Of a stretch of DNA of 64,000 nucleotides, positions 11,949 to 55,078 are shown piece after piece. The notes below the pieces were generated by a model. The model made no database searches and was not told the DNA's origin. It saw only the letters and a program-made list of their open reading frames with translations. Positions within the stretch are counted from its first letter, which is position 1. Each line of letters opens with the position of its first letter. The stretch is from positions 1-64,000 of IMG/VR virus record IMGVR_UViG_3300027754_000060. One strand, written 5' to 3'. This DNA comes from a virus. The position numbers and the translations under genes are program-made.

Positions 11949-12338
11949 ATGGACAAAGAAAAGCTTGAACAAATAGCTCAAAAGGTTATATCTAACATAA
12001 AAAATCAGAATAAAGATGATAATTTTGGTTTTATTATAACTGTCCTAATGATCATAAGTATTGTCTTAACATGTATAAGGATTATTCAAGAGTGTCATAA
12101 AAATAAAAGATTTGAAGAAGTGTCAGAAAAGGGACAGTTTTATTCAGAAAAAGTTCACACTTTAACAAGATTTCCTAACTGGTATGCTAGACATAAGGTT
12201 AAAAAAATAGTTAGAAAAGAACTGTCTCCAGAAGACTATAAGCGATATGGATTAGATCTCACAGATGCTCTATTCGTTACTGGAGCAGATCTCACGGAGG
12301 AAGAAACTCAAACCCTAGTGGAGGCTGCTAATGTTTAA
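11949..12338 (+). CDS. hypothetical membrane protein
   Basis: TM segment FGFIITVLMIISIVLTCI. Confidence 0.75.
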   Translation: MDKEKLEQIAQKVISNIKNQNKDDNFGFIITVLMIISIVLTCIRIIQECHKNKRFEEVSEKGQFYSEKVHTLTRFPNWYARHKVKKIVRKELSPEDYKRYGLDLTDALFVTGADLTEEETQTLVEAANV

Positions 12339-12576
12339 TTTAATAGTGTGGTGTGTTTATGGAATTTTTGTTGGAACAATTGCAAAGAGTATAGTGCCAG
12401 GAGAAGAAAATTTTGGATTTTGGAAAACTATAGCATTAGGGGTTGCAGGATCCTACGCAGGAGGTATAATAACCTATCTACTCGGGATTACTCCTCTTCA
12501 GCCAGCTGGAGTAATTATGGGTGTAGCAGGAGCGATTACATCCTTAGTTTTTTATAAACATTTATTGGAAAAGTAG
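12331..12576 (+). CDS. GlsB/YeaQ/YmgE (transglycosylase-associated) family membrane protein
   Basis: W.VYGIFVGTIAKSIVPG...TIALGVAGSYAGG pattern with three TM segments; RBS ggagg. Confidence 0.8.
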   Translation: MFNLIVWCVYGIFVGTIAKSIVPGEENFGFWKTIALGVAGSYAGGIITYLLGITPLQPAGVIMGVAGAITSLVFYKHLLEK

Positions 12577-12584
12577 ATTAGACA

Positions 12585-13376
12585 ATGTCAGAGAAAGAAT
12601 TATTGGATGAAGAATCTATTGCTACGGGTTTAAGAACTATTTTTACAAGAATACAAAGAAGAGATACTATAGATGCCCTACAGCTGCTGAGCGAAGAACT
12701 AAGCAGTATTGATCCTAAAGATTTAAAATTTAGTGAGATTGTAGAACAGCTCGGTGGATTTCGTCAAATTGGTAAAGTTATTGCTTTGATTCATGAATTT
12801 GCAACAGCCCAAGGGGGTCAGGGGTCATTAGCTAAAGATGCTATGATTGATGATTCTATAGTCTCTATTAATCAATATTATTCTAAACTATCTCGTCCAT
12901 CATGGGATGAATATTTTTTATCTTTAGCCTTTAATATATCGTTGAGATCAGAAGATCCAGATATAAAACATGGTTCAGTTATAGTGAATCAATATCATCA
13001 AATTATTGGAACAGGATATAACGGGCCCATTAAAGGATCGATTAATGCTTTGATACCTCTACATATTAGAGAAGAAAAAAGAAAATGGATGATACACGCA
13101 GAAGAAAACAGTATTCTGAATAGTACTCAGAATCCATCAGAAAGAGGAGATGGCTGTAAAATATATATTACTGGCCAACCCTGTAATCATTGTTTGCAGC
13201 GTATTATTAATTTTGGCATTAAAAAAATAATTATTGCTGACAGAATAGGCTCTATCACAGAAAATGATGAAATGAATATAATGAGAGATAAACTACTAGA
13301 AATGTCTGGTGCTAAAATAGAAAAATTTTCTACAAACAATATGTGGTTGAAAAGATTTTGCCAAGGTGTAATATGA
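12585..13376 (+). CDS. dCMP deaminase (ComEB-like) with a ~100-aa N-terminal extension
   Basis: RPSWDEYF, RSED, GTGYNG, HAEENS and PCNHC zinc motifs. Confidence 0.9.
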   Translation: MSEKELLDEESIATGLRTIFTRIQRRDTIDALQLLSEELSSIDPKDLKFSEIVEQLGGFRQIGKVIALIHEFATAQGGQGSLAKDAMIDDSIVSINQYYSKLSRPSWDEYFLSLAFNISLRSEDPDIKHGSVIVNQYHQIIGTGYNGPIKGSINALIPLHIREEKRKWMIHAEENSILNSTQNPSERGDGCKIYITGQPCNHCLQRIINFGIKKIIIADRIGSITENDEMNIMRDKLLEMSGAKIEKFSTNNMWLKRFCQGVI

Positions 13377-13525
13377 ACGTACTGTCTATTTGTTTTTACT
13401 TCTCTGTATGCTCTTTTTTTTATCTAGAAGCTTTCGGGGATCCAAACATCAACGAACAACATCAACTCGTTACTATTCTTGGGCTAATGGCTATTTTAAA
13501 TAGAGAAGAAAGAGATAAAAAATGA
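13373..13525 (+). CDS. small hydrophobic protein
   Basis: The ATG at 13373 gives ATGA overlaps at both ends. Confidence 0.6.
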   Translation: MNVLSICFYFSVCSFFYLEAFGDPNINEQHQLVTILGLMAILNREERDKK

Positions 13526-14493
13526 TATTCGACGAACAAATAACTAGAAAACCAGACAAATATCCTTGGACGCAAGATTTCATAGAAGCTATGCACAATG
13601 GCTTTTGGACAGTTAGGGAATTTAATTTTCAGAGTGATATTCAGGACTTTAGGGTTTCTCTTAGTGATCAAGAAAAAATAATTATAACCAGGGCCCTATC
13701 TACTATCGGTCAATTAGAAATTTCAGTTAAAAAGTTTTGGGCTAAAATTGGAGACAATCTACCCCACCCATCTATTAATGATATGGGATATGTAATGGCT
13801 AATGTAGAGGTTGTTCATGGAGACGCGTACGAAAGATTGTTAGAAGTTCTTGGGATAGAAGATTCGTTTGAAGAAATCTTAAAATTAGATATGATTAAGG
13901 GCCGGGTCAACTATCTTAGAAAACATCTTCATAAATTTCACTCTGATAATAAAAAACAGTTTATTTATTCCCTAATTCTATTTACCCTGTTTGTAGAAAA
14001 TATAGCCCTATTCTCTCAGTTCTATACCATAGGTTTTTTCTCAAGATATAAAAATGTTTTGAAGGACACCAATAAACAAGTAGAATATACTTCAAGAGAA
14101 GAAAATTTACATGCTATGATAGGGATCAAATTGATCAATACTATTAGAGAAGAATATCCAGAAATCTTTGATGAAGAACTAGAAGCTAAAATCTCTTATG
14201 AAGCTAAAGAAGCTGTTAAGTATGAGTGTCAAATAGCAGAATGGATTATAAATGGCTATGAGCACGACAAACTCAATGCTGCTCTGCTCAAAGAATTTAT
14301 TAAAAATAGAATGAATGAATCTTTAGTGAGTATTGGTTATGATAAAATTTTTGATACTAACAATGAACTATTAACTAAGACGATATGGTTTGATGAACAA
14401 GTTTTGGGTAATAATATGACAGATTTTTTTCATTCTCGTCCAGTAGAATATTCTAAAAAATCTCAGAGTTTTGCTGAGGAAGATTTGTTCTAA
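13522..14493 (+). CDS. nrdB: ribonucleotide reductase class I beta subunit
   Basis: FW..EF, EVVHGDAY (radical Tyr), VENIALFSQF, EENLH and DFF..RPVEY. Confidence 0.95.
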   Translation: MIFDEQITRKPDKYPWTQDFIEAMHNGFWTVREFNFQSDIQDFRVSLSDQEKIIITRALSTIGQLEISVKKFWAKIGDNLPHPSINDMGYVMANVEVVHGDAYERLLEVLGIEDSFEEILKLDMIKGRVNYLRKHLHKFHSDNKKQFIYSLILFTLFVENIALFSQFYTIGFFSRYKNVLKDTNKQVEYTSREENLHAMIGIKLINTIREEYPEIFDEELEAKISYEAKEAVKYECQIAEWIINGYEHDKLNAALLKEFIKNRMNESLVSIGYDKIFDTNNELLTKTIWFDEQVLGNNMTDFFHSRPVEYSKKSQSFAEEDLF

Positions 14494-40159: not shown

Positions 40160-40555
40160 TTATATTTCTTTCTTCCATTTTCCAACAGGACACTCTTGAT
40201 CTGCCCAAGCCAATTTACTAATATATCTTTTATTCCTAATAAGTAGGCATCCACATTTAGAGCATGTGTCTTCTTTAAAAAACTCACAAGATCGACAGAT
40301 ATTATGTCTTTCGATAATCTTTTCTTCTGAACATAATTTCATCCCCGTAGATATATGTTCTATTGTAGCTTTGGCAAAATTTTTTAGTTTCTCGCTAAAA
40401 GTTTTATCGTCGCTTTGTCTATGTAGTGGTTTTTTACAGATGAAAACAGGAGGATCTCCATCAAAAGATCTAAGTTTTATGCCACAATTATTACATTCAT
40501 AGTTCATACCATCTTCGCTAGAAAACTCGCAAAAACTATTTTGTGAAATACTCAT
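40160..40555 (-). CDS. small Cys-rich phage protein
   Basis: R..IC..C.FF...C.KCGC...K.....ECPVGKW. Confidence 0.8.
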   Translation of the reverse strand: MSISQNSFCEFSSEDGMNYECNNCGIKLRSFDGDPPVFICKKPLHRQSDDKTFSEKLKNFAKATIEHISTGMKLCSEEKIIERHNICRSCEFFKEDTCSKCGCLLIRNKRYISKLAWADQECPVGKWKKEI

Positions 40556-43500
40556 AAGGTATCAACTCCCATGGAAAAAGGCTTCTCATATTTTCTGATT
40601 TATTTTCTATTCCATCTACACTTCCATAAAATGCCCTAAACATCATTTCGTTTTGCAGCTGCAGAAAATCTGTAATGGGTGCTTGTTCGAGTGCTTTTGC
40701 GGCATTTTTTTGCAAACATTGCCAAGCATAAAAATTATTAATCAGTAGATAACCAGAGGTTAGCTCTTCTGGACTAGGAGGATTGGCACTACTAATTTGT
40801 TGATAAGTACTATGTTTTCCATATCTAAATACGGACGTTAATAGATCTATGCCACGAACTTGTCTAGGTATTTTTCTAAATTGCACTCGCAAATTCGCCG
40901 TATCATCAAGATTAAAAATATTATATACTCTCGCAACAGCACTTACTCTCGATCCCTCAGAATCCTGTAAGCCAAGACCCCCATCGGATGGAGATGTTAC
41001 ACACTGGATATCATTTGTTGGGCCAATTCCTGGAACATACGCGACATCTGCTGAAAAATCATTTTTTATAATCCCCTGGTTTAATCTTTTTGCTAGATCT
41101 TTTTCATCATTTATTCTTTCGTGAGGAGCAAGAAGAATTTCATATGTTTCTTTTGCTCTTACCAGTATCTCTGAGCCAGGCAATATCCCGTCGGTATCGG
41201 AGTTATAGCTGAACGATCTTTCTATGGTCGTTAGTTCCCAATTTGGAGCACCTGGCAACTTATAAAGATCGACTATTTTCTCTTTATCCTGTTTTATTTT
41301 TTCATCTGGAATCTTATAAATGAAAACGTCTCCTCCTGAATAGAAATCCTCTATACCTCCGCTCTTTATGCCCTCACCAACACCAGCACTAACTGGACAA
41401 ATATTACTATTTCCAAGAAATACCGCTGTTCCTTTTAATGTATTAATAAGAGAGCAGGCGTATTCAGTTTTAACTAAAACTCTAGGCCTCATCTCTTCTG
41501 CTATGCTACAAGATTGTTTTGGGTCTATATTGATCCAATAGTAATCATTACTAACATCTTTATATGTTATCTGATACGCTCCAGCTGAATCTGTTTTAAG
41601 ATCGATATTTATATGTTGAAGCAGTTTAGTATCTCTTATAATTGCTGATTCTTTGTCCTGAATAAAAGACCTAATTATTCCAAGATCTTTATTATTAGAA
41701 TCTTTTAGAATCTTCGTTCCATGCTCCAAAGGTAATAATCGATCTGCCTCATTTCTTGTGGGAGACTCATCTCCAATTATGATGTGTCCATCTGTTTCAG
41801 CAAGGATTTTACCAAACTTAGAATCTGGAGACGAAATACTAGCTGCTACTTTTTCGCTATCTGGTGGTGGTGACTGAGTATAAAAAACTTTAGCAAAAGG
41901 AATTGCTTGATCTTCTAATACTTTAAGAATCTCGTTTCTTTCCAAATATTTGTCTTGTAGCGATCTATAAGTTCGTTTTTTATTGCATTGATTAATATCA
42001 GATCCTTTCCCATAACAAGATCCAGCATCGTCAGGTAGAGAGGCATAATGTTCTTGTAAGTATCTAATATTTGAGCTGTTGATTATTAAGGTTGTACTAG
42101 CTGCGTCTGTTTTTCCAACACTATTATCAAGATTTGTAACATCTTCTGCTGACTCCATCTTTTGCAATCTGGCTGATAACCCTGATATCTGTTCTGGGGT
42201 CAATCTTTGAATTGGAAATTTTTGGATATAATCGTCTTCAATTATTAATTCTCCAAAATCTTGAGAGATACTCTTAAATGAAGAACTTTTTAAATACATA
42301 ATATCATATTTATGGCTAGGGGAATTTAAAATAGCTCTAGATATTTCTTCTAGAGTAGCCTGTAACTCATCGACTAATGGAGTTTTTGTATTGGGGGACG
42401 CGATATCTGAGTTCTTTGTCTTTTCTGGAGCTGTTGGCCAGCCATATCCAGAGACTATTTGAAAATTGTCTCTCAATAATAGTCTTTTATATTCTTCAGA
42501 AGAGTAAGCATAACCAGCTATTTTTTCATCTTTAACAACCTTTATTGTTTTCTGTGTTCCGTCTGTGGAATAAAACAGAGTTACCTGATTATATTTTATC
42601 TTATCGTTTTCTATATTATTAAATATCTGATATATATTTTTTAAATTATTATGTTGTAATTGGCAAGTCAAGATATTTTTATTAACAGTAGGAGAACCAT
42701 CCCCATAGCTACCTAATCCTGACAAAGAAAAACTTGACTCTGGAGTTAAGGGCCTACTTTGATTTTTATCCAGACCCCAAAGACTTATGGGGCTATTGGT
42801 TGTTGAGGTTTTTTGATTTTTAAATACTAGTAGAGTCTCACCAAATCCACACAGAGTATCATTTTTACTCATGTCTATTGGGATTTCTAATAATGTGTAG
42901 TATTTGCCATCTTTCACAATAGAGGCTTTATTTAGTATCTTTGTATCAATAGTTTTGCTGTCATCTGTTTCCCCATTAGAATATACTCTAATGCCAAAGT
43001 TTGAAACAACCGGAGTATCAGATGACTGAGCATTTGGATTTGACGATCCATACATTGAGTCTGAACTAGCAGTAGCCTCATCAGCAGAAACGCCAAATAT
43101 ATTATACGGAATATTAGTTTCCAGCAGAACAATTTGTTTATTTCTTAATTTTGTTAAAAAGCTACTATCAAAAATGCTTTTTTTATAATTGGATATATGA
43201 TTATACTGTAAAAATTTATTAGCGGATAAAAGAGCTGATGGATCATCAGATAAATTAACTAAAGAATCATCTTTTATAACATACAAACCAGGCGATGGAG
43301 AATCATCAGCATCTGGGTCACATGGTTCTACAAAAGAAACATCAACTATGTCTCCTTCTTCATAAGAGACATCTGAGACAGTAGAAAATGATCCAGAGTT
43401 AGGAGAAAAGCTTTTACAATCAATAATACTTAATTTTTTAATAAAAATAGGATCTATTAAATCTTCCATGCTTTCTACTACTGAATACGAAAATTCTCCC

Positions 43501-46500
43501 AAAGATGGCAGGATTCCTTTTTTCAACCTTATAAACTTATATTTATTGTGCTCAAGTATTGGAGTATTAGCATATTTAAATATAGAAGCCTCTAACTTAT
43601 ACCAAAAACACCCATCTTTACTAGCATTTATTAATATTTTTTCTGGCGACCCAAAAGGATAAGAGTTATAATTTGGGGAATAGATATTTCTTACTGTTGC
43701 ATCCAAAGCTCTCCCATAAGCCATGTCTTTAAACATGTTAAATAAAGCCTGATATCCAGCATAATATCCTGCTGTTGGTCCCGTCATAGCTCCTACAAAC
43801 GTTCCTGTCATAGCTCCGCCTAGTACTCCGAGTAAAATTTGTTGCATCGCTTCGGATGGAAATCTTACCGGTCCTAAAAAAGAACCTTTTCCAACAAGTG
43901 ACGGATTAGCAGATTCGCATGAGCCAGCGTCGTTCATAAATATATTTGGGGCATTTAAATTAACCAGAGGCAATAGATGTTTTTTATCTGACATATTGGC
44001 TATGAAATTATATCCGGGGTATTGTGGATCTTTACCATACTCAATTAATGATAAGGCGTCAGCGTTTCCATATGTTGATAATCCACCACCCATAGAAGGC
44101 GTAGGCTTCCTTGTTTTTCCAGTGTGCAATACTAGCTCCCAGCTGCATAATGATCCGTATATATCGGAAGATTTAGGTTTTTTTTCTATGTTGTCAAAAT
44201 TAGTGTACGAATCATTCGAAGCAATCATGTCATAAGCAATCATATCATCTGGCTCATCTAGCACAGCTATGTTTAGGATAAAGGTTGTAGAAGAATCAAA
44301 GGCTGTTTGTTGTTGTTTTGATGAGCAGCCATCTGGTCCGCATCCATTACTTCTTGTAGCAGAAGAGAATAATTGTTTGTTTTTTAGTTTACTAAATTTA
44401 TTATTTGTTATATTAAATCTATTAGTGTTAATAATCCTATTTATTAAAGAATGATCCCTTGTAGAATATCCAAAAGTAGCAGTGGTTGGAGAGACCTCTC
44501 CGTTATTTTTTATGATATTCTGTTCACTATTCGCCCCCATTGGATTCGCAGTACTTTGATCATATAAACAGTTGTGGCTTGAAGCATGATCAGAGAACTT
44601 AATACTAAAATTATATTCCTTATTCTGTATTTGCTCTTGGTTCAATAAGTATATTTTAAAGTTTGAGGCTGGACCATCAGATGAGTTCATATCTGTTAAA
44701 GATTTTAGATATGATCCAACAAATTTATTTTTAATACCCTCTGGGATAAGATTTGATCCTGTTTCCGTTGGCCATTTATATCCAGTAGCATGGACTTGAG
44801 GAGGAAAGCTTTGATCTATAAATTCAACGTTTCCAGACACAACATCTGGATTGGGTGGATTGTAAGGGCCAGCATTTCCGCATGGGGCAGGAGGAAGAGG
44901 AAGCTGCCTATCTATCTCTGATAAGGATGGCTCTACTTCTAACCATATAACTAAATTTTTAGTATTAACATAATTTAAAAAGTTTAATTTTACCTCTATA
45001 TCCTCTATGGTAAAACTGTTAACTCTAGGATTCCTTAATCCTAATGCTGGTGGAGCCCTACCATTATGAGGTATTCTTCTTGATGGTCCAGAAACAGCAA
45101 AACTATATGAGAATTGATTATTATTTTTACCAAGTTTTGAATAACCTTTATATGCCCGGGTATTCTTACCGCCAAGTGCTCCAAGAGTAGAGCTAAAAAC
45201 AAATTCATCATTTACAGGATCAGACCCAGAAGCATTTAATTCAGAGGATCTTGGATTTCCTCCACCCAGAATCCTATATCCATGAGCATATCTAGCGCTG
45301 ATCAGTTGATCCAAATACTCTTTATGTAGCTGATTTTTTTGATTCATAGCGCCGAATTCTGCTTGAAATTGTTCTGCTGTTTGGTTTTCTGTAATTCCCG
45401 TTGTGTCTTTCTGGTCTGCGGGAGGACACTTACACAAAGGTGCCCACCTAACATGTGGGGCTATATCTATCTTAATGGCGCTCCTATAAATATTTGGCTC
45501 TATACCATTATTGTATCCATTTTTAAGACCAAACAATCCTGGACCAGTAAAGCTAAATGTATCTCTTGCTCCTGGATTAAATTTTAATACGCTACTACTA
45601 TTTTTAGTTCCACTAGCTACTCCAATAGCAGTATATCCTGTTCCATCATAAGGCAACCACCCCGATCCAGGATGAAAGACCCCTTTGGAAAACTCAATAT
45701 GTGCCGATGAAGGAGACAGACTTTTTTGATAACATAGTTTTAAACTTTTTTCTGATTCTAACATATTGGGGATATTGTTCTTATCATTTAATGGGAATCC
45801 TGTTATTGATGGTAAATATATCGGAGACACTGATACACCACTTGGAATACCTTGTGGAAGATCTAATGGATTATTTGGCGGTGGGATTTTATGATCTGGA
45901 ATATCTATGCCTATATCTTCTTTAATAATTTTACTACTATATCCACCATAACTAGCTATCTTTGGAGATAGGTTGGTGCTTATTAAAGGATAAACATATG
46001 TCTGTGGCTCTTCTGGCACGAACATCTTTTTTTCATTGCTATAAGAATATTTTTGAAGATTGAAAGAGTCGGGATGTTTTTGAGTTCTACGATACTTCAC
46101 AACAGTGTTTGTGATGCCATTGTCAAAATCTGTAGATGGCTGTCCTTCAAATTTTGGTTCGCACATACTCAAACACTGATAACAATCTCCAGAATTATTT
46201 CGTAAATTTTCTAGAGAGACTCTCTCCAGTTTAACAACCGTATTATTTAGAGCATAGTTTATCTGAAGATTAGAGTCTTTTTCATTTGGAACAAACAAGA
46301 TATTTGATAATGAACTATCAAAAAAATTAAATTTATAGTTGTGAGATTCTAAAGAATCAATTATTGTGTCTCTTTCTACCTTAAAATCAGTTTTAATAGG
46401 CCAGAACATTCCATGCCTATTAATAGCTATTTTATTCATGTTGCAGACTAACACTCTTAGATTATCCCTATTGGGTAAGACGGATGGGGATTCCTTAAGA

Positions 46501-48692
46501 GCGAGATTATTTAGATCTATAGGGTCTGGAAATTTCCAAAGATTAATATCTTCATTACCGTTGTAGATGGCTACTCCGTATGGTAATAGGCCGCTATTAG
46601 GATCGTCCCTGTATCTTCCAAAATATATATTATTTATAGGAGGACTATTATCTTTGTAAGGCACCTGTCTACCATCTACTACATAAAAAGTTTTTTGTTT
46701 AATAAAAGTTCCAAATGGCGTCAATACTGTACACTGTATCATTTGTCTGCCAGTCGCTCCTATACCAAAAGTAACATTTTGACTGGTGGAAGTGTCGAAT
46801 CTGGATAAATCTTTTGTTTGTTTGTTTTCATCTGAAAAAAATCCTCTTGGTCCGCTGACCTGTTCCCAAAAACAAGATATTTGACTTTTAGCTTCGTTCA
46901 GAGATGGAGCAAAGGGACTGTCAATTCTAGAATCTAAACAATCGTCAATATTTAACAGAACTTTAAATTTGATACCTCCGTCGCCCCCTGTGCCATCCCA
47001 TCTAAAAATATGAGTTAGTGGAGAATTTTTAAGCTTTTCAGGAGTAGAATCATCTGCCTCTCCTATCATATTACCCTTCTTAACGTTCGTAACTTCTTCC
47101 ATCACAATGTTTAATTCTAAATTATTCTTTATTTTTGTTTTTACTAAATCTCTGAGATAAACAGTATTTTTAGTTTCCCCCGCCACTGCAAGTTTTATTT
47201 CACTAGATTGATCATTTAGAATAGTTTTAATCGCAAGCTTGCCTATGGTTATCTCCTGATTATTAAAAACGGTAGTATCTTTTAAAGTCTTCTTACATAG
47301 TGTTGATCCTATCTGACTAATAACTATACTATCTCCATGGATTAATTTGTTCTTATAGCTAAGGTTGTCTTTTATGACTAATTTTGCTCCATATTTTTCT
47401 ATGAGCTTTTTAAATAAAGAGGATGATGTAGTAATAAGATTATTATTAAGAGTTGTTGTGGATAATCTAGTATCTAAATCAAAACTAGTTATCGGTGCTT
47501 GCTGAATATTTTCAATCTTATTTTGTAAAAGACTGCTAATTTTAATTAATACGTCTCTTAAATTAATCAATTCTGTCGCTACAGAGTTTGACTGATTATT
47601 TAGATAATCTTTAATAAGTTCTTTTATTTCCATAGAGTCCAATGAATTAATGGCGAATTCTGAAATCCAAGGACTCGTACTTAGGTAATGTGATAATTTT
47701 TTAAATAGTCTAGATCTTTTAATATCTCTAATACCGAATGTCTTTTTTTCATCAAGAGTTAATATATGATAAATTTGAGTATATGTGTTATGCAGAGAGG
47801 CGGAGATATATGATGATGAGGGCTTATCCGAAGTAGATCCTATATTTAGTTCAGATAGTGTTTTATAGTATGAAAAACAATCTCCGTTCGCTATCCACAG
47901 TTCGCATCTACCTATATCGGGTATGAACTCTTTGAGTCTATCTTCTTCGACAGAGGAATTATCTGTTCTGTTTTCTGTAGTAACTATTGGGGATAAAATA
48001 AATTTAATATTTGTTGCTGCTCCACCAAAAGATGAAATGGTTATAAAAGGATTTTCCTCAGAAAATTTTATCTTCTGAGTAGTGTCTGAGCTTGTTGAAA
48101 AAGTTGTTTCTTTTATCTTTGTTGAATATAATAAGTCGTCACTTAATTTAATATAAACATCTGTGGGGCTACCACCCACCCTAGAAATCCTGGAACCAAT
48201 AGGAAAATTAGAGATACTATCAGGGTCCCCTTTTATTAACTGGGAGTTATCAGACTGTAAAACTCTAACCCAACACATAATCCCATAAGTTAAAACATAA
48301 GGATTAGAAGATCTATTTAATATCCAATCTATTGACATTTTGCTATCACCAGCATTCCAATTATTAAATTCTGGCTTAAATTCTATAAAATCTTCTATTC
48401 CTAGTCTTCCACTACTAGTTTTTCCTGTTTGACCAGAAATGCCCCCGTCATTGGACAGTACTTTATTAACGATATTGTTATCATTGTCTATAAATATGGG
48501 ATACCAAATATTGGGAGGCATAGGATTAGCTGGAAGCATAAGAGATTTTAGAATAGATTTCTTATCGCTTATTGTATTAGAAACTCCATTTGAAAACTGA
48601 ATATTTTGATCCATCAACTTATAGGATAATAGATCATCAGCAAAAGATTTGTTAAAAATCTCGCAATTGTCTTTGGTATTATATATTGTCAT
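40536..48692 (-). CDS. 2718-aa putative virion structural protein with PKD-like and proprotein-convertase P-like segments
   Basis: Uninterrupted ORF; WEQVSGP; IEDIEVKL...NLVIWL and GSLCSWELVL. Confidence 0.7.
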   Translation of the reverse strand: MTIYNTKDNCEIFNKSFADDLLSYKLMDQNIQFSNGVSNTISDKKSILKSLMLPANPMPPNIWYPIFIDNDNNIVNKVLSNDGGISGQTGKTSSGRLGIEDFIEFKPEFNNWNAGDSKMSIDWILNRSSNPYVLTYGIMCWVRVLQSDNSQLIKGDPDSISNFPIGSRISRVGGSPTDVYIKLSDDLLYSTKIKETTFSTSSDTTQKIKFSEENPFITISSFGGAATNIKFILSPIVTTENRTDNSSVEEDRLKEFIPDIGRCELWIANGDCFSYYKTLSELNIGSTSDKPSSSYISASLHNTYTQIYHILTLDEKKTFGIRDIKRSRLFKKLSHYLSTSPWISEFAINSLDSMEIKELIKDYLNNQSNSVATELINLRDVLIKISSLLQNKIENIQQAPITSFDLDTRLSTTTLNNNLITTSSSLFKKLIEKYGAKLVIKDNLSYKNKLIHGDSIVISQIGSTLCKKTLKDTTVFNNQEITIGKLAIKTILNDQSSEIKLAVAGETKNTVYLRDLVKTKIKNNLELNIVMEEVTNVKKGNMIGEADDSTPEKLKNSPLTHIFRWDGTGGDGGIKFKVLLNIDDCLDSRIDSPFAPSLNEAKSQISCFWEQVSGPRGFFSDENKQTKDLSRFDTSTSQNVTFGIGATGRQMIQCTVLTPFGTFIKQKTFYVVDGRQVPYKDNSPPINNIYFGRYRDDPNSGLLPYGVAIYNGNEDINLWKFPDPIDLNNLALKESPSVLPNRDNLRVLVCNMNKIAINRHGMFWPIKTDFKVERDTIIDSLESHNYKFNFFDSSLSNILFVPNEKDSNLQINYALNNTVVKLERVSLENLRNNSGDCYQCLSMCEPKFEGQPSTDFDNGITNTVVKYRRTQKHPDSFNLQKYSYSNEKKMFVPEEPQTYVYPLISTNLSPKIASYGGYSSKIIKEDIGIDIPDHKIPPPNNPLDLPQGIPSGVSVSPIYLPSITGFPLNDKNNIPNMLESEKSLKLCYQKSLSPSSAHIEFSKGVFHPGSGWLPYDGTGYTAIGVASGTKNSSSVLKFNPGARDTFSFTGPGLFGLKNGYNNGIEPNIYRSAIKIDIAPHVRWAPLCKCPPADQKDTTGITENQTAEQFQAEFGAMNQKNQLHKEYLDQLISARYAHGYRILGGGNPRSSELNASGSDPVNDEFVFSSTLGALGGKNTRAYKGYSKLGKNNNQFSYSFAVSGPSRRIPHNGRAPPALGLRNPRVNSFTIEDIEVKLNFLNYVNTKNLVIWLEVEPSLSEIDRQLPLPPAPCGNAGPYNPPNPDVVSGNVEFIDQSFPPQVHATGYKWPTETGSNLIPEGIKNKFVGSYLKSLTDMNSSDGPASNFKIYLLNQEQIQNKEYNFSIKFSDHASSHNCLYDQSTANPMGANSEQNIIKNNGEVSPTTATFGYSTRDHSLINRIINTNRFNITNNKFSKLKNKQLFSSATRSNGCGPDGCSSKQQQTAFDSSTTFILNIAVLDEPDDMIAYDMIASNDSYTNFDNIEKKPKSSDIYGSLCSWELVLHTGKTRKPTPSMGGGLSTYGNADALSLIEYGKDPQYPGYNFIANMSDKKHLLPLVNLNAPNIFMNDAGSCESANPSLVGKGSFLGPVRFPSEAMQQILLGVLGGAMTGTFVGAMTGPTAGYYAGYQALFNMFKDMAYGRALDATVRNIYSPNYNSYPFGSPEKILINASKDGCFWYKLEASIFKYANTPILEHNKYKFIRLKKGILPSLGEFSYSVVESMEDLIDPIFIKKLSIIDCKSFSPNSGSFSTVSDVSYEEGDIVDVSFVEPCDPDADDSPSPGLYVIKDDSLVNLSDDPSALLSANKFLQYNHISNYKKSIFDSSFLTKLRNKQIVLLETNIPYNIFGVSADEATASSDSMYGSSNPNAQSSDTPVVSNFGIRVYSNGETDDSKTIDTKILNKASIVKDGKYYTLLEIPIDMSKNDTLCGFGETLLVFKNQKTSTTNSPISLWGLDKNQSRPLTPESSFSLSGLGSYGDGSPTVNKNILTCQLQHNNLKNIYQIFNNIENDKIKYNQVTLFYSTDGTQKTIKVVKDEKIAGYAYSSEEYKRLLLRDNFQIVSGYGWPTAPEKTKNSDIASPNTKTPLVDELQATLEEISRAILNSPSHKYDIMYLKSSSFKSISQDFGELIIEDDYIQKFPIQRLTPEQISGLSARLQKMESAEDVTNLDNSVGKTDAASTTLIINSSNIRYLQEHYASLPDDAGSCYGKGSDINQCNKKRTYRSLQDKYLERNEILKVLEDQAIPFAKVFYTQSPPPDSEKVAASISSPDSKFGKILAETDGHIIIGDESPTRNEADRLLPLEHGTKILKDSNNKDLGIIRSFIQDKESAIIRDTKLLQHINIDLKTDSAGAYQITYKDVSNDYYWINIDPKQSCSIAEEMRPRVLVKTEYACSLINTLKGTAVFLGNSNICPVSAGVGEGIKSGGIEDFYSGGDVFIYKIPDEKIKQDKEKIVDLYKLPGAPNWELTTIERSFSYNSDTDGILPGSEILVRAKETYEILLAPHERINDEKDLAKRLNQGIIKNDFSADVAYVPGIGPTNDIQCVTSPSDGGLGLQDSEGSRVSAVARVYNIFNLDDTANLRVQFRKIPRQVRGIDLLTSVFRYGKHSTYQQISSANPPSPEELTSGYLLINNFYAWQCLQKNAAKALEQAPITDFLQLQNEMMFRAFYGSVDGIENKSENMRSLFPWELIPYEYFTK

Positions 48693-48694
48693 GC

Positions 48695-51600
48695 TTAATT
48701 CTTAATTGATGTGAGAGTCCATTTTCCATTTATGTATACAAACATTCCATTTTTTCCACTAGTTGTCTGAAACTCCATCGGATTATCAAAAGGCACTACA
48801 AAACTAGGAACTATTCCAGCTCGTCTTCCTTGGATATAATGTTGTTCTATTTTTACATTAGTATTATTTACTATCTTACCCTTAGCCATAGTTACTGGCT
48901 TACTAATCGGCTCATAGAATCCAGAGTCTATACTATATTTACACAATAATTTAGTTCCTCTTGGGGCAGAATATCCCGCTTTATCTACAACATATACTAA
49001 TCTTCTATATCCTCTTGTCAAAGGCTCCTTACTATATTCTATATCATCTATGAATCCTCGGGTAGCATATGTTTCATCTGAATCATCTTCCTTAATAAGA
49101 TCTTCTTCTAATGTTATATTAACCATCTTATATGGACAAGTATTACTCTCTTTAGATGATAAAAATTCATTTAAAGTAGAAATATCTGTACTATTGGTTA
49201 TTATAGATGGGGGCAATAATTCTTCTGTGCAGCCACCACCACCAGCTGCCCAAAGTTTTCTACTATCATCCCATCTAAGATCTATTGGTCCAACAGGCCA
49301 TAATTCTGGATGCTCCGCCCAATTAAGATGAAAGTATTTACTCGGTTTAGCTTTGATTTTTTTATATTTTACAGCGGCCGCATCCCATTCATAGTTTCTT
49401 CCAACAACATCTCCCAATAGTTGCCCCTCACTATTAATAAAAACTCCTTGTTGTTTATAATCATTTAATCCTCCACTAGTCAATATAAATCTTCTAAATC
49501 TTCCATACTCATCCATATCTTTGGGTTCATCATTAAGATTTGGTACTGGATAACCAGCAGTATCATATCCCCAACTATGAAGCATTAGTGGTCCTCTTAG
49601 TCCAAAAAATCTTTGATTCTGAAGAGTTTTTGCTCCTCCTCCCATCTGATTGAAAATATCATGCTCATAATAGTCTGATGAAACTCCAGTACTAGATATG
49701 TGTCCACTTAGATCTACTAGTTTTTCGCCGTATAAATTATTACTAATACCAAGAGTTAATTCTCCATCTATTGGCATTTCGCCTCTTCCGACAATAGATA
49801 TACTGTGTCTACATTTATCCAATCCTAATCCTGAAGCACCAGTAACAGTTTGAGCATTTGGATTCCTAAATTCTCCATAAGGAACAACAATAGGATTATA
49901 AGCATAAATATTTATTTCTGGCTTGGTATCCTTTAAGGCTATAGCTATTTGTTGTGCAACCGTCTTATTTTTCATCGAGTCTAATATCTTTGCGTTTTTT
50001 ACCACCAGTTTAGATCTAGAGCATACTGGACACGGATACGAAATTTGCTGTGAAACACGAGGCACAGCTGTAGATTTATAGTCTATAAAGCTGATTGGCA
50101 AATTTCCTGCTCCGTGGCACCTTGGACATACTACTGCTCCTACTGGAACCCCGGTAATATGAGAGCTAATAGAATAAGTACCAACATATTGAGTTGGGTA
50201 AAAAGAAAGAGGAGAGAAAATTCCATCCAAACTCATGACTGATTTAGACTCATAACCATTTATTAATTCTGCTCCTACTTCATCTCCCATATACAAACCA
50301 GTCCAAGTTCTAGTTCTTCCTAGCTTATATAAACCAGAAGGACTATTATCTGGTATCGCCGCTCCAATATCGCTCCCAGCAGTATTCCCTAAACTAGGAT
50401 ACGGAATATGAAGTGTAGTTCTCCCTATTAGCGTTTCAACAGGACTGCTTCCATATAGCTTACTACCATATCCACTCATGGAGTCACTATTACTATCTGA
50501 CATTTTTTGTAATATTTTTTGACCATCTACTAAAAAATCATTTCCTATTTTTGATCTATTGCTGCTCATTGTTTTACGATCTTTGATTATTTCAGCAGTT
50601 CTTTTTTTTACTAAGTCCGCATACTCCTTGCTGTATAGTCCTGTTTTTTTGTCATAAGTCTTAAAGCTATAATTGGTGGTGCTTGATCCACCTCCTCCTA
50701 AACTCATGCTAATACTACTGATTATTGGAGCTGTTGCAAGATAATTATTTGGATTATATACCATAACAGTAGGATAGTTCAAAGGCGTTGCTATATAAGC
50801 ATTGTTTATAATTTTTGCATCTATATAACCAATAATGTTTGTAAATTTGGTATATACTTCATTACCATATTTTAGAGAGTTTGCTGGTAGAGCCTGCGTG
50901 AACAATGGTTCAAATCGGCCTCCAAGATTAAATATTGGAGCTCCCTCTACTGTCATGGATCCTTTCTCCATAACAAACTGATAATTCGCTTCCCTTTCCA
51001 TGTCGCTAATGACTTTAGCATCTAGGAAACTCATTCCTCCATAATTCCAAGGAACTAGATCATCGAGGATGTCTATTTTTGTATTGGCGATCATATTTTC
51101 TATAGCAGTATTAGGATTAGCAGCATTGGGATATACAAGGTCTGCCCTGACAGAAGGATAGTTTGTCCATGGTCCATAACAGTACTGGTTAGATATTAAT
51201 GGAACAGCAGCAAATAAAGGATGGGCCATTTTTGGTAGCATGGTAGCAAATTTATATGACTGATTAGCAGGAGATCCTTGATACCCAATTTGACCAAGAT
51301 CTACTTTTATTTGATTTGCAAAAGTACCTCCATATGTAAGACCTGTAAAAGTACTAAGAAATTGGAGTGACGCAAGTTCATCTACAGTGACTGATCTACC
51401 AGATAGCTTAAGCATATGATCATAATAAATAAGATCTTCCATAGCTATATTAGATATTATTGTTAGGTTCGGATCATGAGTATAAGCATAACTAGTATTC
51501 TCCAAAGGTATGGACAATCCAGCAATTATTGCTCGTGGATCACTAAGATTATGAGGATTTAGATAAGCTATCTCTGAAGTATTTACTGTTGTCGCAGAGT

Positions 51601-54600
51601 ACAACTTTTTTGATCCTGCCAAAATAATGTTTCCAAAAGCATCTGATCGACCATGTGTTGCAACCATAACAAATGAAGAATTAGTTCCTAGTTTTGTTAT
51701 ATCTAAAGACTGAGTTAGAAATTGCGAAGATCCTATAGCGGTATATTGTTGTTTTTTCTTGCCTGCTGCGTGATAAGTTCTTGTTATAGATGGATCGCAT
51801 CCCATGTATCCGCCAATAATTTTATTTTGTTCTTTTATCTTTTTCGCCTGTGCAGCAACAGCAGGAGCATTTCCCTGAACAACTAGCATAGCTGCCTCTA
51901 TTTTCTGTTGCCAGGCTTGATACTCCCCGAGGAGGCCAGGATTGGCGAATAAATCAGCATCTGGTTCCTCGTTAGCAATTGTATCAACTCTCAGTTGGTC
52001 CATAGCTATTTGCAGAGTTAGTTTGTCTAATACTGCTTGATGTTCTGCTAATATTTTTTGTTGAGCAGCTAAGTCTTTCATGCACCATGATTGTTTTAGA
52101 TAGTCAATATTGTCGGTAGCATTATATCCAATGATAGGTGGAATAAGACCGTTGTCTTCGCACAAAGTATAATAGTTTTCGTCTCCAATAATAATACAAT
52201 CGTCTAAATAATTACCTACCTCTTCCCAAGCTTTATCTGCAATTTTATAATTTTGATTAATCTTCCTATTTCCCTTAAATACTGGTAAAGATCTTCCTCC
52301 TACTACAATATCTAGTTGGGCATATGACGAATCCTGAGAAGAAGATAGATCCAGAAGCTTAACCATATATTGCTTCCCATAATACTTGTTACCTATATCT
52401 CTAACAAATTCAGCTAGAGTTTTAAGATCTTTTATAAAGTTATGATTCAAGTATATATTAAAATTTTGAAGATCCGATTTTGTAACTACTGGAGCTGCAG
52501 GAGCAGCTGGAGCGGGCATCCCTGGTTCATTCACTGCCGAGTTAAGAAGCGAAGTCCCCAGGCCAGGGCCTTGACCTATCGTTACGATAGCATCCGCTCC
52601 ACCACCTGATGGTGGAGGAGCAGTACCAAAAAAGAGACCCCTTGACATATAGTGACCTACTAATAAGTTATATAAATCAGGCTTGGTATCTTTTGATTTT
52701 CCTAAACAGTAAGTAATATAGGCATCCGTATCTTTCATGGCGCATCTAAGTTCTGTCTCCCTTATCATAAATCCTATGGGTGAAGGATTAGGAGTATATT
52801 GAGCAGCTAAAGACCCGCTGGGATTTGGTGTTGGTGGTGGTGTTGTTGGTGGTGGTGTTGTTGGTGGTGGTGATGGCGGTGTTACTCCTTGAGGAGCAGG
52901 GGATGCTGGAGCAGTCGCTGATCCTCCAGTTCCTCCAATAGGAGTGGAACCAGCCGTACCTGCTCCTCCAGCTGCTCCTGCAGCTCCAGGAAGATTAGCT
53001 ATCTGCTGAGTAGATCCCACATATGCTGGCATTGGTAATAATCCCAAATTTAATAAAGGTATTTCGCTTACGTAAAAAGCTATTGCCAACTGACCATCCC
53101 AAGTGTCTTGATATACTGGTCTAATATGTCTAGATATGTTATTGTCTTTGCTAAGATCAATAATATTATCTCCGTGATATCCAAAAAATGGAGATATCGT
53201 GTCATAATATAACGGATTATATCTTGGGGGCACACATCCAGGAGGCAGAATAGTTTCTTGAGAGGGGTCTGCACTAGAAGAAGAAGGTTGTGTAGTCGTT
53301 GCCGTATCCGGGTCTTGTAATAGCTGAAATTTATTCAAGCACGTATATTTCGCAGGTATTCCAAAAGAATATGGATAATTCCCCATTATAATATTTTCTG
53401 GATTAGGAGCTATTTCATGATCTTTCCATCTGTTGTCTAAAGAATAAAATTTGTTTCCAGTCATCAACTCTCTCATTGCTTCATCAGTATCGAATAAAGA
53501 ATGAATATCAGCTCCCAAAACAGCGGAAGATAAACTTGTATTTCTAGTGCTAAAATAAGATGGGACTCTTAATTTTCCTCTTCCATTAGCGCCGCCAAAT
53601 CTATTCAGATTTACAAACTTATCTATTGATGGATGATATATATAATTAGTCTGGTTGTATGCTAATCTATAATTTTTTGCTTGTAATAATCTTTGTTGTG
53701 GTCCTCCCACTTTCATTATTCTTGGAGCAACATTATTATTTTTTTCTTTTCCATAAGTTGTTGAAGATATTGAGAAGCCAGATTTTTCTAAAGAAAGAAT
53801 AGTCTTCTCTACTGTAGAATCATGGGTTTCCATTGTTCTTTCGATAGTTTTTATTTTAATGATATTATGCACATTACCGTTTACAGCAAAAGATAGAGCT
53901 GCTGTGGTTCTGTCTGATCCATTTGCTTCTATTATATTGTCGATAAATTGGGAGATAGTCATCTTGTCTTCTGACATTCTGTGAGTCAGAGGAGGTCTTT
54001 TAATAGCCGATAAATCAAGACCAAATACACATCGTGGTATTGGGGTCACACTATCGCTTATTACCAAAGCTGTATTGGTTGTTGGAGGAATAACTCCAAA
54101 AGCATAAGTTTTAAAGTTCGGAGTAATCCTGATAGAGTTTGTGGTCTCCATAGTTTTAGACATAATTCTACCAAATGGAGAAAAGGCTGTTTTATTTAAA
54201 TTCTTTAAAACGCTAGCATCTTCGCAACAGGTCAAGACAGCAAGAGCATCTAGAGCATAGGCAGAAGGAATTCCGTCCTCCGTTTTTTTTGCTCCACCAA
54301 AATTATTCATACCCATTGATTCTAAAAATCCGTAAACATTAAAAACATTAGGAATAGCTCCCTCTTTAATATTTCCCACATATTCAACTCCTGGCCCGAC
54401 ATAATTCTTAGGTCCCCCATAAGGTTTTCCTGCAATTTTTGAAAAAATAGACCCGGGATATTTATTAAGAATAACATAAGATTCATTAAGCAGTGTCTCT
54501 ACACTACTTATTTGAACACTATACGATACAGTACCAACCCTATTGTGTCTTTCCCAAGATTCTATCAATCCAGTAAATGTAAAATCAGCCATCTTAAATA

Positions 54601-55078
54601 CTACGGGAGTTCCGATTATATTATACTTATATATTCTCTTTTCATTTAGAGTTCCATCTGGAGCTACTCTGGTAGAAACCCCAAAGAATCCAGGATCTTC
54701 AAGGACCCAGTATCTTGAGACTAGACCAGAATCTGTCCAAGCATAATATAGTTTTCCAGGAATATTCTTAGTAGTATGAGCAGGTATAGCATTAGAATTG
54801 TAGACTTCGCCCTTTTCATTAACATAGCAATAATCGTTAAGCGGGGCCCCACAGGTATAATAATGATCGTCTGGATATGATAAAGTTGCGGGATATTGAG
54901 CTACTGGAGAAGACGAACCCTCTGGATAGCAAACCAATGGCTGATTATCCTCTACAAGATCAACAGTCAAACTAGATCCTGATCCACCCCAACCCATATT
55001 AGAGTTAAAACTAGATACGCTAGCTCCTAAGAATAAGGTTTGTCCTAATAATTTTACTGGAGATGCACAAACAGCCAT
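48695..55078 (-). CDS. 2127-aa putative tail or baseplate protein
   Basis: Uninterrupted ORF in the structural block with a Pro/Gly linker and CPRC...CPVC; function is inferred from size and context. Confidence 0.6.
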   Translation of the reverse strand: MAVCASPVKLLGQTLFLGASVSSFNSNMGWGGSGSSLTVDLVEDNQPLVCYPEGSSSPVAQYPATLSYPDDHYYTCGAPLNDYCYVNEKGEVYNSNAIPAHTTKNIPGKLYYAWTDSGLVSRYWVLEDPGFFGVSTRVAPDGTLNEKRIYKYNIIGTPVVFKMADFTFTGLIESWERHNRVGTVSYSVQISSVETLLNESYVILNKYPGSIFSKIAGKPYGGPKNYVGPGVEYVGNIKEGAIPNVFNVYGFLESMGMNNFGGAKKTEDGIPSAYALDALAVLTCCEDASVLKNLNKTAFSPFGRIMSKTMETTNSIRITPNFKTYAFGVIPPTTNTALVISDSVTPIPRCVFGLDLSAIKRPPLTHRMSEDKMTISQFIDNIIEANGSDRTTAALSFAVNGNVHNIIKIKTIERTMETHDSTVEKTILSLEKSGFSISSTTYGKEKNNNVAPRIMKVGGPQQRLLQAKNYRLAYNQTNYIYHPSIDKFVNLNRFGGANGRGKLRVPSYFSTRNTSLSSAVLGADIHSLFDTDEAMRELMTGNKFYSLDNRWKDHEIAPNPENIIMGNYPYSFGIPAKYTCLNKFQLLQDPDTATTTQPSSSSADPSQETILPPGCVPPRYNPLYYDTISPFFGYHGDNIIDLSKDNNISRHIRPVYQDTWDGQLAIAFYVSEIPLLNLGLLPMPAYVGSTQQIANLPGAAGAAGGAGTAGSTPIGGTGGSATAPASPAPQGVTPPSPPPTTPPPTTPPPTPNPSGSLAAQYTPNPSPIGFMIRETELRCAMKDTDAYITYCLGKSKDTKPDLYNLLVGHYMSRGLFFGTAPPPSGGGADAIVTIGQGPGLGTSLLNSAVNEPGMPAPAAPAAPVVTKSDLQNFNIYLNHNFIKDLKTLAEFVRDIGNKYYGKQYMVKLLDLSSSQDSSYAQLDIVVGGRSLPVFKGNRKINQNYKIADKAWEEVGNYLDDCIIIGDENYYTLCEDNGLIPPIIGYNATDNIDYLKQSWCMKDLAAQQKILAEHQAVLDKLTLQIAMDQLRVDTIANEEPDADLFANPGLLGEYQAWQQKIEAAMLVVQGNAPAVAAQAKKIKEQNKIIGGYMGCDPSITRTYHAAGKKKQQYTAIGSSQFLTQSLDITKLGTNSSFVMVATHGRSDAFGNIILAGSKKLYSATTVNTSEIAYLNPHNLSDPRAIIAGLSIPLENTSYAYTHDPNLTIISNIAMEDLIYYDHMLKLSGRSVTVDELASLQFLSTFTGLTYGGTFANQIKVDLGQIGYQGSPANQSYKFATMLPKMAHPLFAAVPLISNQYCYGPWTNYPSVRADLVYPNAANPNTAIENMIANTKIDILDDLVPWNYGGMSFLDAKVISDMEREANYQFVMEKGSMTVEGAPIFNLGGRFEPLFTQALPANSLKYGNEVYTKFTNIIGYIDAKIINNAYIATPLNYPTVMVYNPNNYLATAPIISSISMSLGGGGSSTTNYSFKTYDKKTGLYSKEYADLVKKRTAEIIKDRKTMSSNRSKIGNDFLVDGQKILQKMSDSNSDSMSGYGSKLYGSSPVETLIGRTTLHIPYPSLGNTAGSDIGAAIPDNSPSGLYKLGRTRTWTGLYMGDEVGAELINGYESKSVMSLDGIFSPLSFYPTQYVGTYSISSHITGVPVGAVVCPRCHGAGNLPISFIDYKSTAVPRVSQQISYPCPVCSRSKLVVKNAKILDSMKNKTVAQQIAIALKDTKPEINIYAYNPIVVPYGEFRNPNAQTVTGASGLGLDKCRHSISIVGRGEMPIDGELTLGISNNLYGEKLVDLSGHISSTGVSSDYYEHDIFNQMGGGAKTLQNQRFFGLRGPLMLHSWGYDTAGYPVPNLNDEPKDMDEYGRFRRFILTSGGLNDYKQQGVFINSEGQLLGDVVGRNYEWDAAAVKYKKIKAKPSKYFHLNWAEHPELWPVGPIDLRWDDSRKLWAAGGGGCTEELLPPSIITNSTDISTLNEFLSSKESNTCPYKMVNITLEEDLIKEDDSDETYATRGFIDDIEYSKEPLTRGYRRLVYVVDKAGYSAPRGTKLLCKYSIDSGFYEPISKPVTMAKGKIVNNTNVKIEQHYIQGRRAGIVPSFVVPFDNPMEFQTTSGKNGMFVYINGKWTLTSIKN

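Follow-up and report, generated by a model that had tools for sequence, protein, structure and literature searches.

A tape-measure-derived segment in frame with a predicted dCMP deaminase of a freshwater virus

A gene of the dCMP deaminase family, found in a virus from freshwater and lake metagenomes, carries ahead of its core an in-frame segment that derives from the tape measure protein (TMP) gene of the virus's own lineage. The stretch analysed (the window) comprises the first 64 kb of the 97,085-nt IMG/VR record IMGVR_UViG_3300027754_000060, which has a G+C content of 35% and is 67% complete by CheckV. The chimeric gene (12585..13376, plus strand) is an open reading frame (ORF) of 263 aa plus stop, in which a native leader, the TMP-derived insert, a linker and the dCMP deaminase core follow one another. 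We think it fairly probable (about 0.6) that the insert, though translated, is filler without a function that was captured in the course of microhomology-mediated repair. A literature search returned no described fusion between a TMP and a deaminase.

The deaminase core and the tape measure donor

The earlier note had placed about 100 extra residues before the motif RPSWDEYF, and the peptide that it quoted is found exactly there: the core begins at residue 104, behind 103 residues of which 79 are TMP-derived. In the 263-aa protein, PF00383 (dCMP_cyt_deam_1) matches residues 106–218 with 73.7 bits against a cut-off of 25, and phrog_174 ("dCMP deaminase") matches residues 103–248 (E = 9.4e-32), leaving some 100 residues ahead of the deaminase core (12894..13373, plus strand). 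The HAE (residues 171–173; 13095–13103) and PCNHC (residues 199–203; 13179–13193) motifs are intact and are invariant in a 17-sequence alignment. By these matches and motifs the window protein belongs to the dCMP deaminase family, and dCMP is its predicted substrate, judging from the source name "dCMP deaminase" of homologues and from the nucleotide-metabolism context. Genes for the small and large chains of ribonucleotide reductase, for dUTPase and for PhoH lie downstream, which places the deaminase gene in an ordinary nucleotide-metabolism module. Plain deaminases of phrog_174/PF00383 share the fold family, the HAE and PCxxC motifs and the nucleotide-gene neighbourhood with the window protein, but they start at or just before RPSWDEYF, whereas the window protein has its 103 additional residues. 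Cd of phage T4 is a plain dCMP deaminase of this kind.

Two small genes directly upstream (11949–12576) encode 129 and 81 aa, the shorter product with two hydrophobic stretches, and neither has a Pfam or PHROG match. Elsewhere in the window, nested direct repeats occupy positions 1–742 (130 nt at 99% with an offset of 612, and 264 nt at 91% with an offset of 369), and two further giant ORFs of 2718 and 2127 aa (40536–55078, minus strand) have no Pfam match at E ≤ 1e-4.

Searched by tblastn against the 64-kb window alone, the 102-aa extension gave no match, because the donor gene lies outside the window. Against the whole 97,085-nt record it gave two adjacent minus-strand matches, at 87706–87909 (84% identity, E = 3e-24) and at 87952–88035 (79% identity, E = 3e-9), both of which fall in a single ORF of 5768 aa (genome positions 71707–89013, minus strand). 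This ORF has a PF10145 (PhageMin_Tail) score of 82.8 bits, and of 75.6 bits at residues 191–384, against a cut-off of 33.2; the donor segment of the insert corresponds to genome positions 87712–88032 on the minus strand. Comparing the extension with this genome's TMP, as had been suggested, gave a BLASTP alignment of residues 10–88 of the chimeric protein with residues 328–434 of the TMP (counted from the Met of the TMP), in which 72 of 79 positions are identical (E = 3e-33) and gaps of 21 and 7 residues fall at microhomologies. The proposed likeness to TP901-type tape measures, and the view of the segment as a condensed one, are thus borne out. Its extent, given in the earlier note as 12585–12890, contains the homology but is slightly too wide, the homologous part (79 codons) covering 12612..12848. 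At the DNA level, identity to the lineage's own TMP gene is 95.8% over 12612–12683 and, including a 21-nt gap, 80.5% over 12679–12842.

The extension retrieved 469 proteins from a set of 5.8 billion, with E values down to 4e-22, in a search that took proteins of 180–2000 aa, the clade's own giant TMPs being longer. Deaminase fusions aside, the 120 matches listed all carry PF10145 or a tape measure name, frequently "TP901 family phage tail tape measure protein", except P0192, which has neither a Pfam entry nor a name, and P0124, whose source name is HflD-like regulator. The insert is 91% identical to the own-lineage TMP, against 44–60% to the best listed of the 469 other proteins, and 73% identical in this segment to a 7795-aa TMP homologue of two relatives of 122 and 161 kb (G001 and G002). 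These values place the donor in this phage lineage, the comparison with other proteins being confined to those of 180–2000 aa.

The copied part comprises the C-terminal third of the PhageMin_Tail domain and about 50 following residues, a stretch that is among the most conserved of the TP901-type family (107 TMPs). The extension alone (residues 1–102) has no PF10145 match even at E ≤ 10, nor any other Pfam or PHROG match. Judged by its sequence, the insert is homologous to the TP901-type tape measure core but is not a member of the family (PF10145), from whose members it differs in being only a fragment, with a hairpin deleted and a conserved Pro changed, and in being attached to an enzyme. Self-comparison of the genome by BLAST revealed the insert and its TMP counterpart as the sole repeat common to two different genes; the copies are inverted, both in frame, and match over 66 nt with two mismatches, including one identical run of 57 nt.

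The donor ORF also carries an ADP-ribosyltransferase exoenzyme domain (PF03496, residues 1142–1283, E = 2e-9), and its C-terminal 2768 residues have no Pfam match. Among the ten ORFs up- and downstream of it there is no annotated tail or chaperone PHROG, and one match to a PHROG of unknown function. The "tape measure" ORF may be a giant multi-domain ejection protein instead of a simple ruler.

Junctions, independent assemblies and length forms

Alignment of the DNA, which had been proposed as a way to map deletions and microhomologies, revealed two in-frame deletions and a microhomology at each junction. The native leader (MSEKELLDEESI; 12585..12620) was delimited from the codon table and the junction and spans 12 codons including the start codon. 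It ends in GAA TCT ATT (12612–12620), three codons that overlap the left microhomology GAA-NCT-ATT-G: the deaminase gene reads GAA TCT ATT / GCT ACG where the TMP gene reads GAA ACT ATT GCT ACG, with 9 of 10 nt in common. Deletion 1 removed 63 nt (TMP residues 350–370, the hairpin KEFGVVLTDNEGKFVGAYKAI) between GCT-CTA and GCT-ATA (GCTNTA), leaving a scar at 12675..12680 when the window is compared with the TMP gene. Deletion 2 removed 21 nt (AQDALRI/K) between the direct repeats GCT-CAA-G and GCC-CAA-G (GCYCAAG); its scar at 12807..12815 was located by comparing the window with the TMP gene and with L085, an independent JGI metagenome contig. At the right junction (12843..12851), which reads GCT ATG ATT / GAT GAT and is placed by the homology to relatives that begins at I88, the letters ATTG are common to the target site TCT ATT GAT. 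Microhomologies of 4–10 nt thus stand at every junction and deletion, and the insertion, like each deletion, has a length divisible by three.

The insert's second half points to a particular source. In run X6, a TMP contig agrees with the window as far as 12846, with two differences and 21 extra nt over 12753–12846, and then runs on as ...ACT GCA CAG TTA, reading KDAMTAQLS. This match indicates that the second half came from a TMP allele other than the present one of this genome, so that the earlier claim of an in-frame capture from the phage's own tape measure gene holds for the gene of the lineage (91% amino acid identity) but not for its present allele, to which the second half is less close than to the other allele, one that circulates in the same lakes. 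It also means that M87 was inherited from the donor allele (...KDAMTAQLS) and was not created at the junction. Over the 79 codons the insert and the own TMP differ by 9 synonymous and 8 non-synonymous changes, numbers that are uninformative on selection, since it was another TMP allele that served as donor. A pairing of the two copies by a diversity-generating retroelement was rejected, since the 17 differing codons show all kinds of substitution and are not adenine-specific. Read depth rises five-fold at 12623–12669, with many loose ends from TMP genes, so this first block is conserved at the nucleotide level in many TMP alleles, and its near-identity is for that reason not evidence for recent conversion.

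The record is metagenome-assembled, and short-read contigs break around the common block, both of which would suit a wrong joining of TMP reads into the deaminase locus. We consider this extremely improbable and reject it, since the junctions are bridged by L085 and by contigs from other lake samples. Seventeen codon differences and two in-frame deletions also separate the insert from the TMP, the flanks on both sides of it belong to the same deaminase locus, and the gene recurs in other samples and years and in 13 protein clusters. L085 (1.5 kb) has the same gene with the same neighbours, including a 100% conserved 81-aa upstream gene. The stretch is present in 20 public runs from 17 studies (2017–2025). 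In run X4, which is not flagged as a possible source sample, contigs covering 12208–12645, 12616–12836 and 12807–12933 show zero differences; run X13 has contigs over 12200–12737 and 12708–13305, the latter with 21 extra nt behind 12806, and a 3.8-kb contig of run X6 covers 12753–13600. Between them the contigs of these three runs supply the spanning sequence that had been called for, across both junctions and both deletion scars. The 13 clusters (P0001–P0013; ENA, Logan assemblies) span the whole protein at 85–100% identity. Searching with a degenerate DNA pattern of the conserved block yielded no additional occurrence in IMG/VR and a single contig from the JGI metagenomes. In RNA run X17 the deaminase gene has no cover, and the one contig on the common block is the TMP gene itself.

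The protein occurs in three length forms. The 263-aa form is that of the window and P0001; the 270-aa form (P0002, P0004 and L085, and the X13 contig with the extra 21 nt) keeps the 7 residues AQDAL(R/S)I; and the 274-aa form (P0003 and P0005–P0013), the commonest, keeps the 21-residue hairpin KEFGV.LTDSEGKFVG.YK.I. After ...GKVIALIH the 274-aa form reads AFLDEESIDDS in place of EFATAQ...GQGSLAKDAMIDDS, and its insert has a copy of LDEESI on each side. In their deaminase part the 274-aa forms do not differ from the window protein, and the rearrangements must accordingly have taken place within a very short evolutionary distance. No insert-free allele of the lineage (above 77% identity) was found among the 5.8 billion proteins, so the fused form appears fixed. 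Two contig joints, 12576 to 12846 in run X6 (side 30) and 12509 to 13521 in run X13, hint at insert-free but more distant relatives, both being below the reliability marks of the method.

The insertion site in related phages

The deaminases of relatives lack the extension, as the earlier note had suggested checking: this holds for P0014, for the HNH-fused P0017 and for the bare deaminase of the 161-kb relative. Homology to the closest insert-free protein, P0014 (186 aa, 77% identity), starts precisely at I88, the residue that directly follows the TMP-derived stretch, and homology to P0017 (424 aa, 72%) starts at the same residue. The N-terminal module of P0017 and P0039 is HNH or endonuclease VII-like (phrog_374, E = 8e-25; phrog_3322; phrog_1035; phrog_3118), and the nuclease profile extends into the linker IDDSIVSINQYYSKLS (12846..12893), which alignments show to be common to the relatives; in the HNH-fused proteins this linker is the tail of the endonuclease module, the phrog_3322 match reaching residue 109 of P0039. 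The TMP piece therefore sits where sister phages carry the body of a homing endonuclease.

Like the window protein, the sister fusions P0017, P0039 (271 aa) and P0028 have the linker IDxxIxxVNxxYxKL, and their extra module ends at the equivalent of I88; their cores are 65–72% identical to that of the window protein. They differ in what the module is, a homing-type nuclease in their case and a fragment of a virion structural gene of the same genome in the window. The window protein itself has no endonuclease match in PHROG or Pfam, and only the common linker remains. Another relative, P0024, looks like a truncated remnant of the HNH/endonuclease VII-like module. The deaminase of the complete 161.5-kb genome G002 (P0026) is bare, with 159 aa starting MRPSWDEYF; the plain 159-aa deaminase of G001 and G002 lies in a different gene neighbourhood. 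With an HNH module, a TMP piece or nothing at all ahead of the core, the 5' end of this gene is a site at which foreign modules are gained and lost.

Exchange has also affected the other side of the linker. The window and L085 are 99–100% identical from the upstream gene to about 12885, then 84% identical through the deaminase core and a 60-aa downstream ORF, and about 95% identical in the reductase gene. Such sharp steps in identity (12885–13530) indicate that the 5' module and the core recombine independently, and the deaminase core behaves, as far as this alignment goes, as an exchangeable cassette. On selection the comparison of the window with L085 is uninformative, the 5' module being 99–100% identical.

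Translation, constraint and possible roles of the insert

Translation could in principle begin at the internal Met (MIDDS) and leave the TMP stretch as an untranslated 5' relic that happens to be open. An in-frame ATG (M87, 12843) does stand at the right junction of the 263- and 270-aa forms, and the upstream ATG has no strong Shine-Dalgarno (SD) motif, a lack that it shares with about half of the genome's genes. The 274-aa form has Ser-Ile in place of Met-Ile at the junction, and no in-frame ATG, GTG or TTG occurs between 12846 and the core, with the window DNA standing in for that form; the upstream ATG must therefore serve at least there. M87 came with the donor allele, the insertion and both deletions keep the frame, and no SD motif or above-chance promoter precedes 12843 (the scan for promoters and terminators stayed at chance level). 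The internal start raised in the earlier note hence exists as a codon in two forms, but its sole use is most improbable.

The insert is under relaxed constraint. Its hairpin, conserved in 107 TMPs, its 7-residue segment and its last 25 residues are each absent from one form or another, and the Pro of KVIPLI (P406, Met numbering), present in at least 90% of the 107 TMPs, is Ala in every insert. Among ten 274-aa variants, 10 of 82 columns are polymorphic in the insert and 3 of 192 elsewhere (odds ratio 8.75, Fisher p = 5e-4), with the caveat that cluster representatives are not a random sample and that assembly cross-talk with TMP reads may add variants; most derived states are singletons differing from the TMP state. 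AlphaFold2 predicts five helices in residues 9–100, with pLDDT below 50 over residues 1–85, and a deaminase core of moderate to high confidence (pLDDT mostly 60–90).

We propose the following course of events. An ordinary phage dCMP deaminase gene would have taken up, in its 5' linker, about 320 nt of the lineage's own TMP gene by microhomology-mediated illegitimate recombination or template switching. The occasion was probably the repair of a break at the site that holds the HNH homing-endonuclease module in sister phages, or else the loss of such a module. Since the sole start codon that can be used stands upstream, versions out of frame would be lost, and the piece would consequently be translated, giving the protein a helical N-terminal appendage for which no fold is confidently predicted. 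The enzyme would tolerate this appendage, and the piece, presumably devoid of tape measure function, would be drifting and wearing away, through additional in-frame deletions at microhomologies (63 and 21 nt) and a rearranged right end. Illegitimate recombination with mosaic joints (the Hendrix/Hatfull model) and microhomology-mediated end joining (MMEJ) or template switching are well-known processes. Mosaic joints and the templated "filler" at repaired breaks have in common with the present case the junction microhomologies, the ectopic sequence from the same genome and the deletions between direct repeats; what sets this case apart is an in-frame chimera of a late structural and an early metabolic gene that appears fixed and exists in three allelic forms in natural populations.

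Some observations sit less easily with functionless filler. The fused form appears fixed and persists from 2017 to 2025 in many lakes, and all three forms retain a core of some 65 residues, free of stops and frameshifts. A 5' module that is 99–100% identical in two phages whose deaminase cores are 16% apart could reflect the spread of a useful module, and diversifying selection, or cross-talk with TMP reads during assembly, could account for part of the polymorphism excess. A decoy role also has a conceivable target in a family of Avs proteins (Avs18) that a 2026 preprint reports to be activated by tape measure proteins (bioRxiv 10.64898/2026.01.04.697583).

Such a role would make the insert a functional mimic of the TMP, its retained core (GLRTIFTRIQRRDTIDAL ... 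LSE.LSSIDP.DLKFSEIVEQLGGFRQIGKVIALI) binding a partner of the TMP—the TMP itself, a tail assembly chaperone or an Avs18-type host sensor—so that the deaminase would be recruited to the tail or virion, or would serve as a decoy or inhibitor that is expressed early. Among the motifs of TP901-type TMPs, the retained blocks are the best conserved, the fused form is widespread and seems fixed in the lineage, the frame has been kept through several rearrangements, and the reported TMP-sensing Avs proteins (bioRxiv 10.64898/2026.01.04.697583) speak for it too. The deaminase has to be translated, however, which is enough to account for upkeep of the frame, and a TMP epitope expressed early would be no less likely to set off a sensor than to block it. 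Three dispensable segments, a replaced near-invariant Pro, a roughly 9-fold rise in amino acid polymorphism and the lack of a confidently predicted fold also stand against it, and overall we judge a functional mimic unlikely. Against the same loss of the hairpin and of the Pro (to Ala), the three length forms, the polymorphism and the structure prediction, the tail-targeting or decoy role offered in the earlier note finds no support. The more specific version, in which TMP motifs borne early by the enzyme titrate an Avs18-like sensor or a tail chaperone, or carry the deaminase into the tail for injection, and in which the three forms record an arms race and not decay, seems to us distinctly improbable. 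Still more doubtful is a use of the DNA itself, the inverted in-frame copies at 12.6 and 87.9 kb serving gene conversion or inversion that would diversify or truncate the TMP. The orientation, shared frame and 66-nt match of the copies would allow it, and the insert variants resemble mixtures of TMP allele states; yet no stretch is better conserved among all TMP alleles of these lakes than the near-identical block, none of the contigs shows an inverted joint, and inversion would destroy the normal products of both genes.

Captured, functionless filler remains our preferred reading, and the locus would then be an unusually clean natural example of a new protein segment arising in a virus. Donor, recipient, microhomologies, three successive allelic forms and, from weak contig hints, an apparently insert-free relative are all visible in lake metagenomes of 2017–2025. 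The 5' end of the deaminase gene emerges as a recombination hot spot, which has received an HNH module in sister phages and a fragment of a structural gene here. The locus also offers a test of whether pieces of virion proteins that become fused to early genes serve as mimics or are junk, a question made sharper by the report of host sensors of tape measure proteins. If the segment is junk, as the evidence favours, it would warn against assuming that every in-frame fusion has a function.
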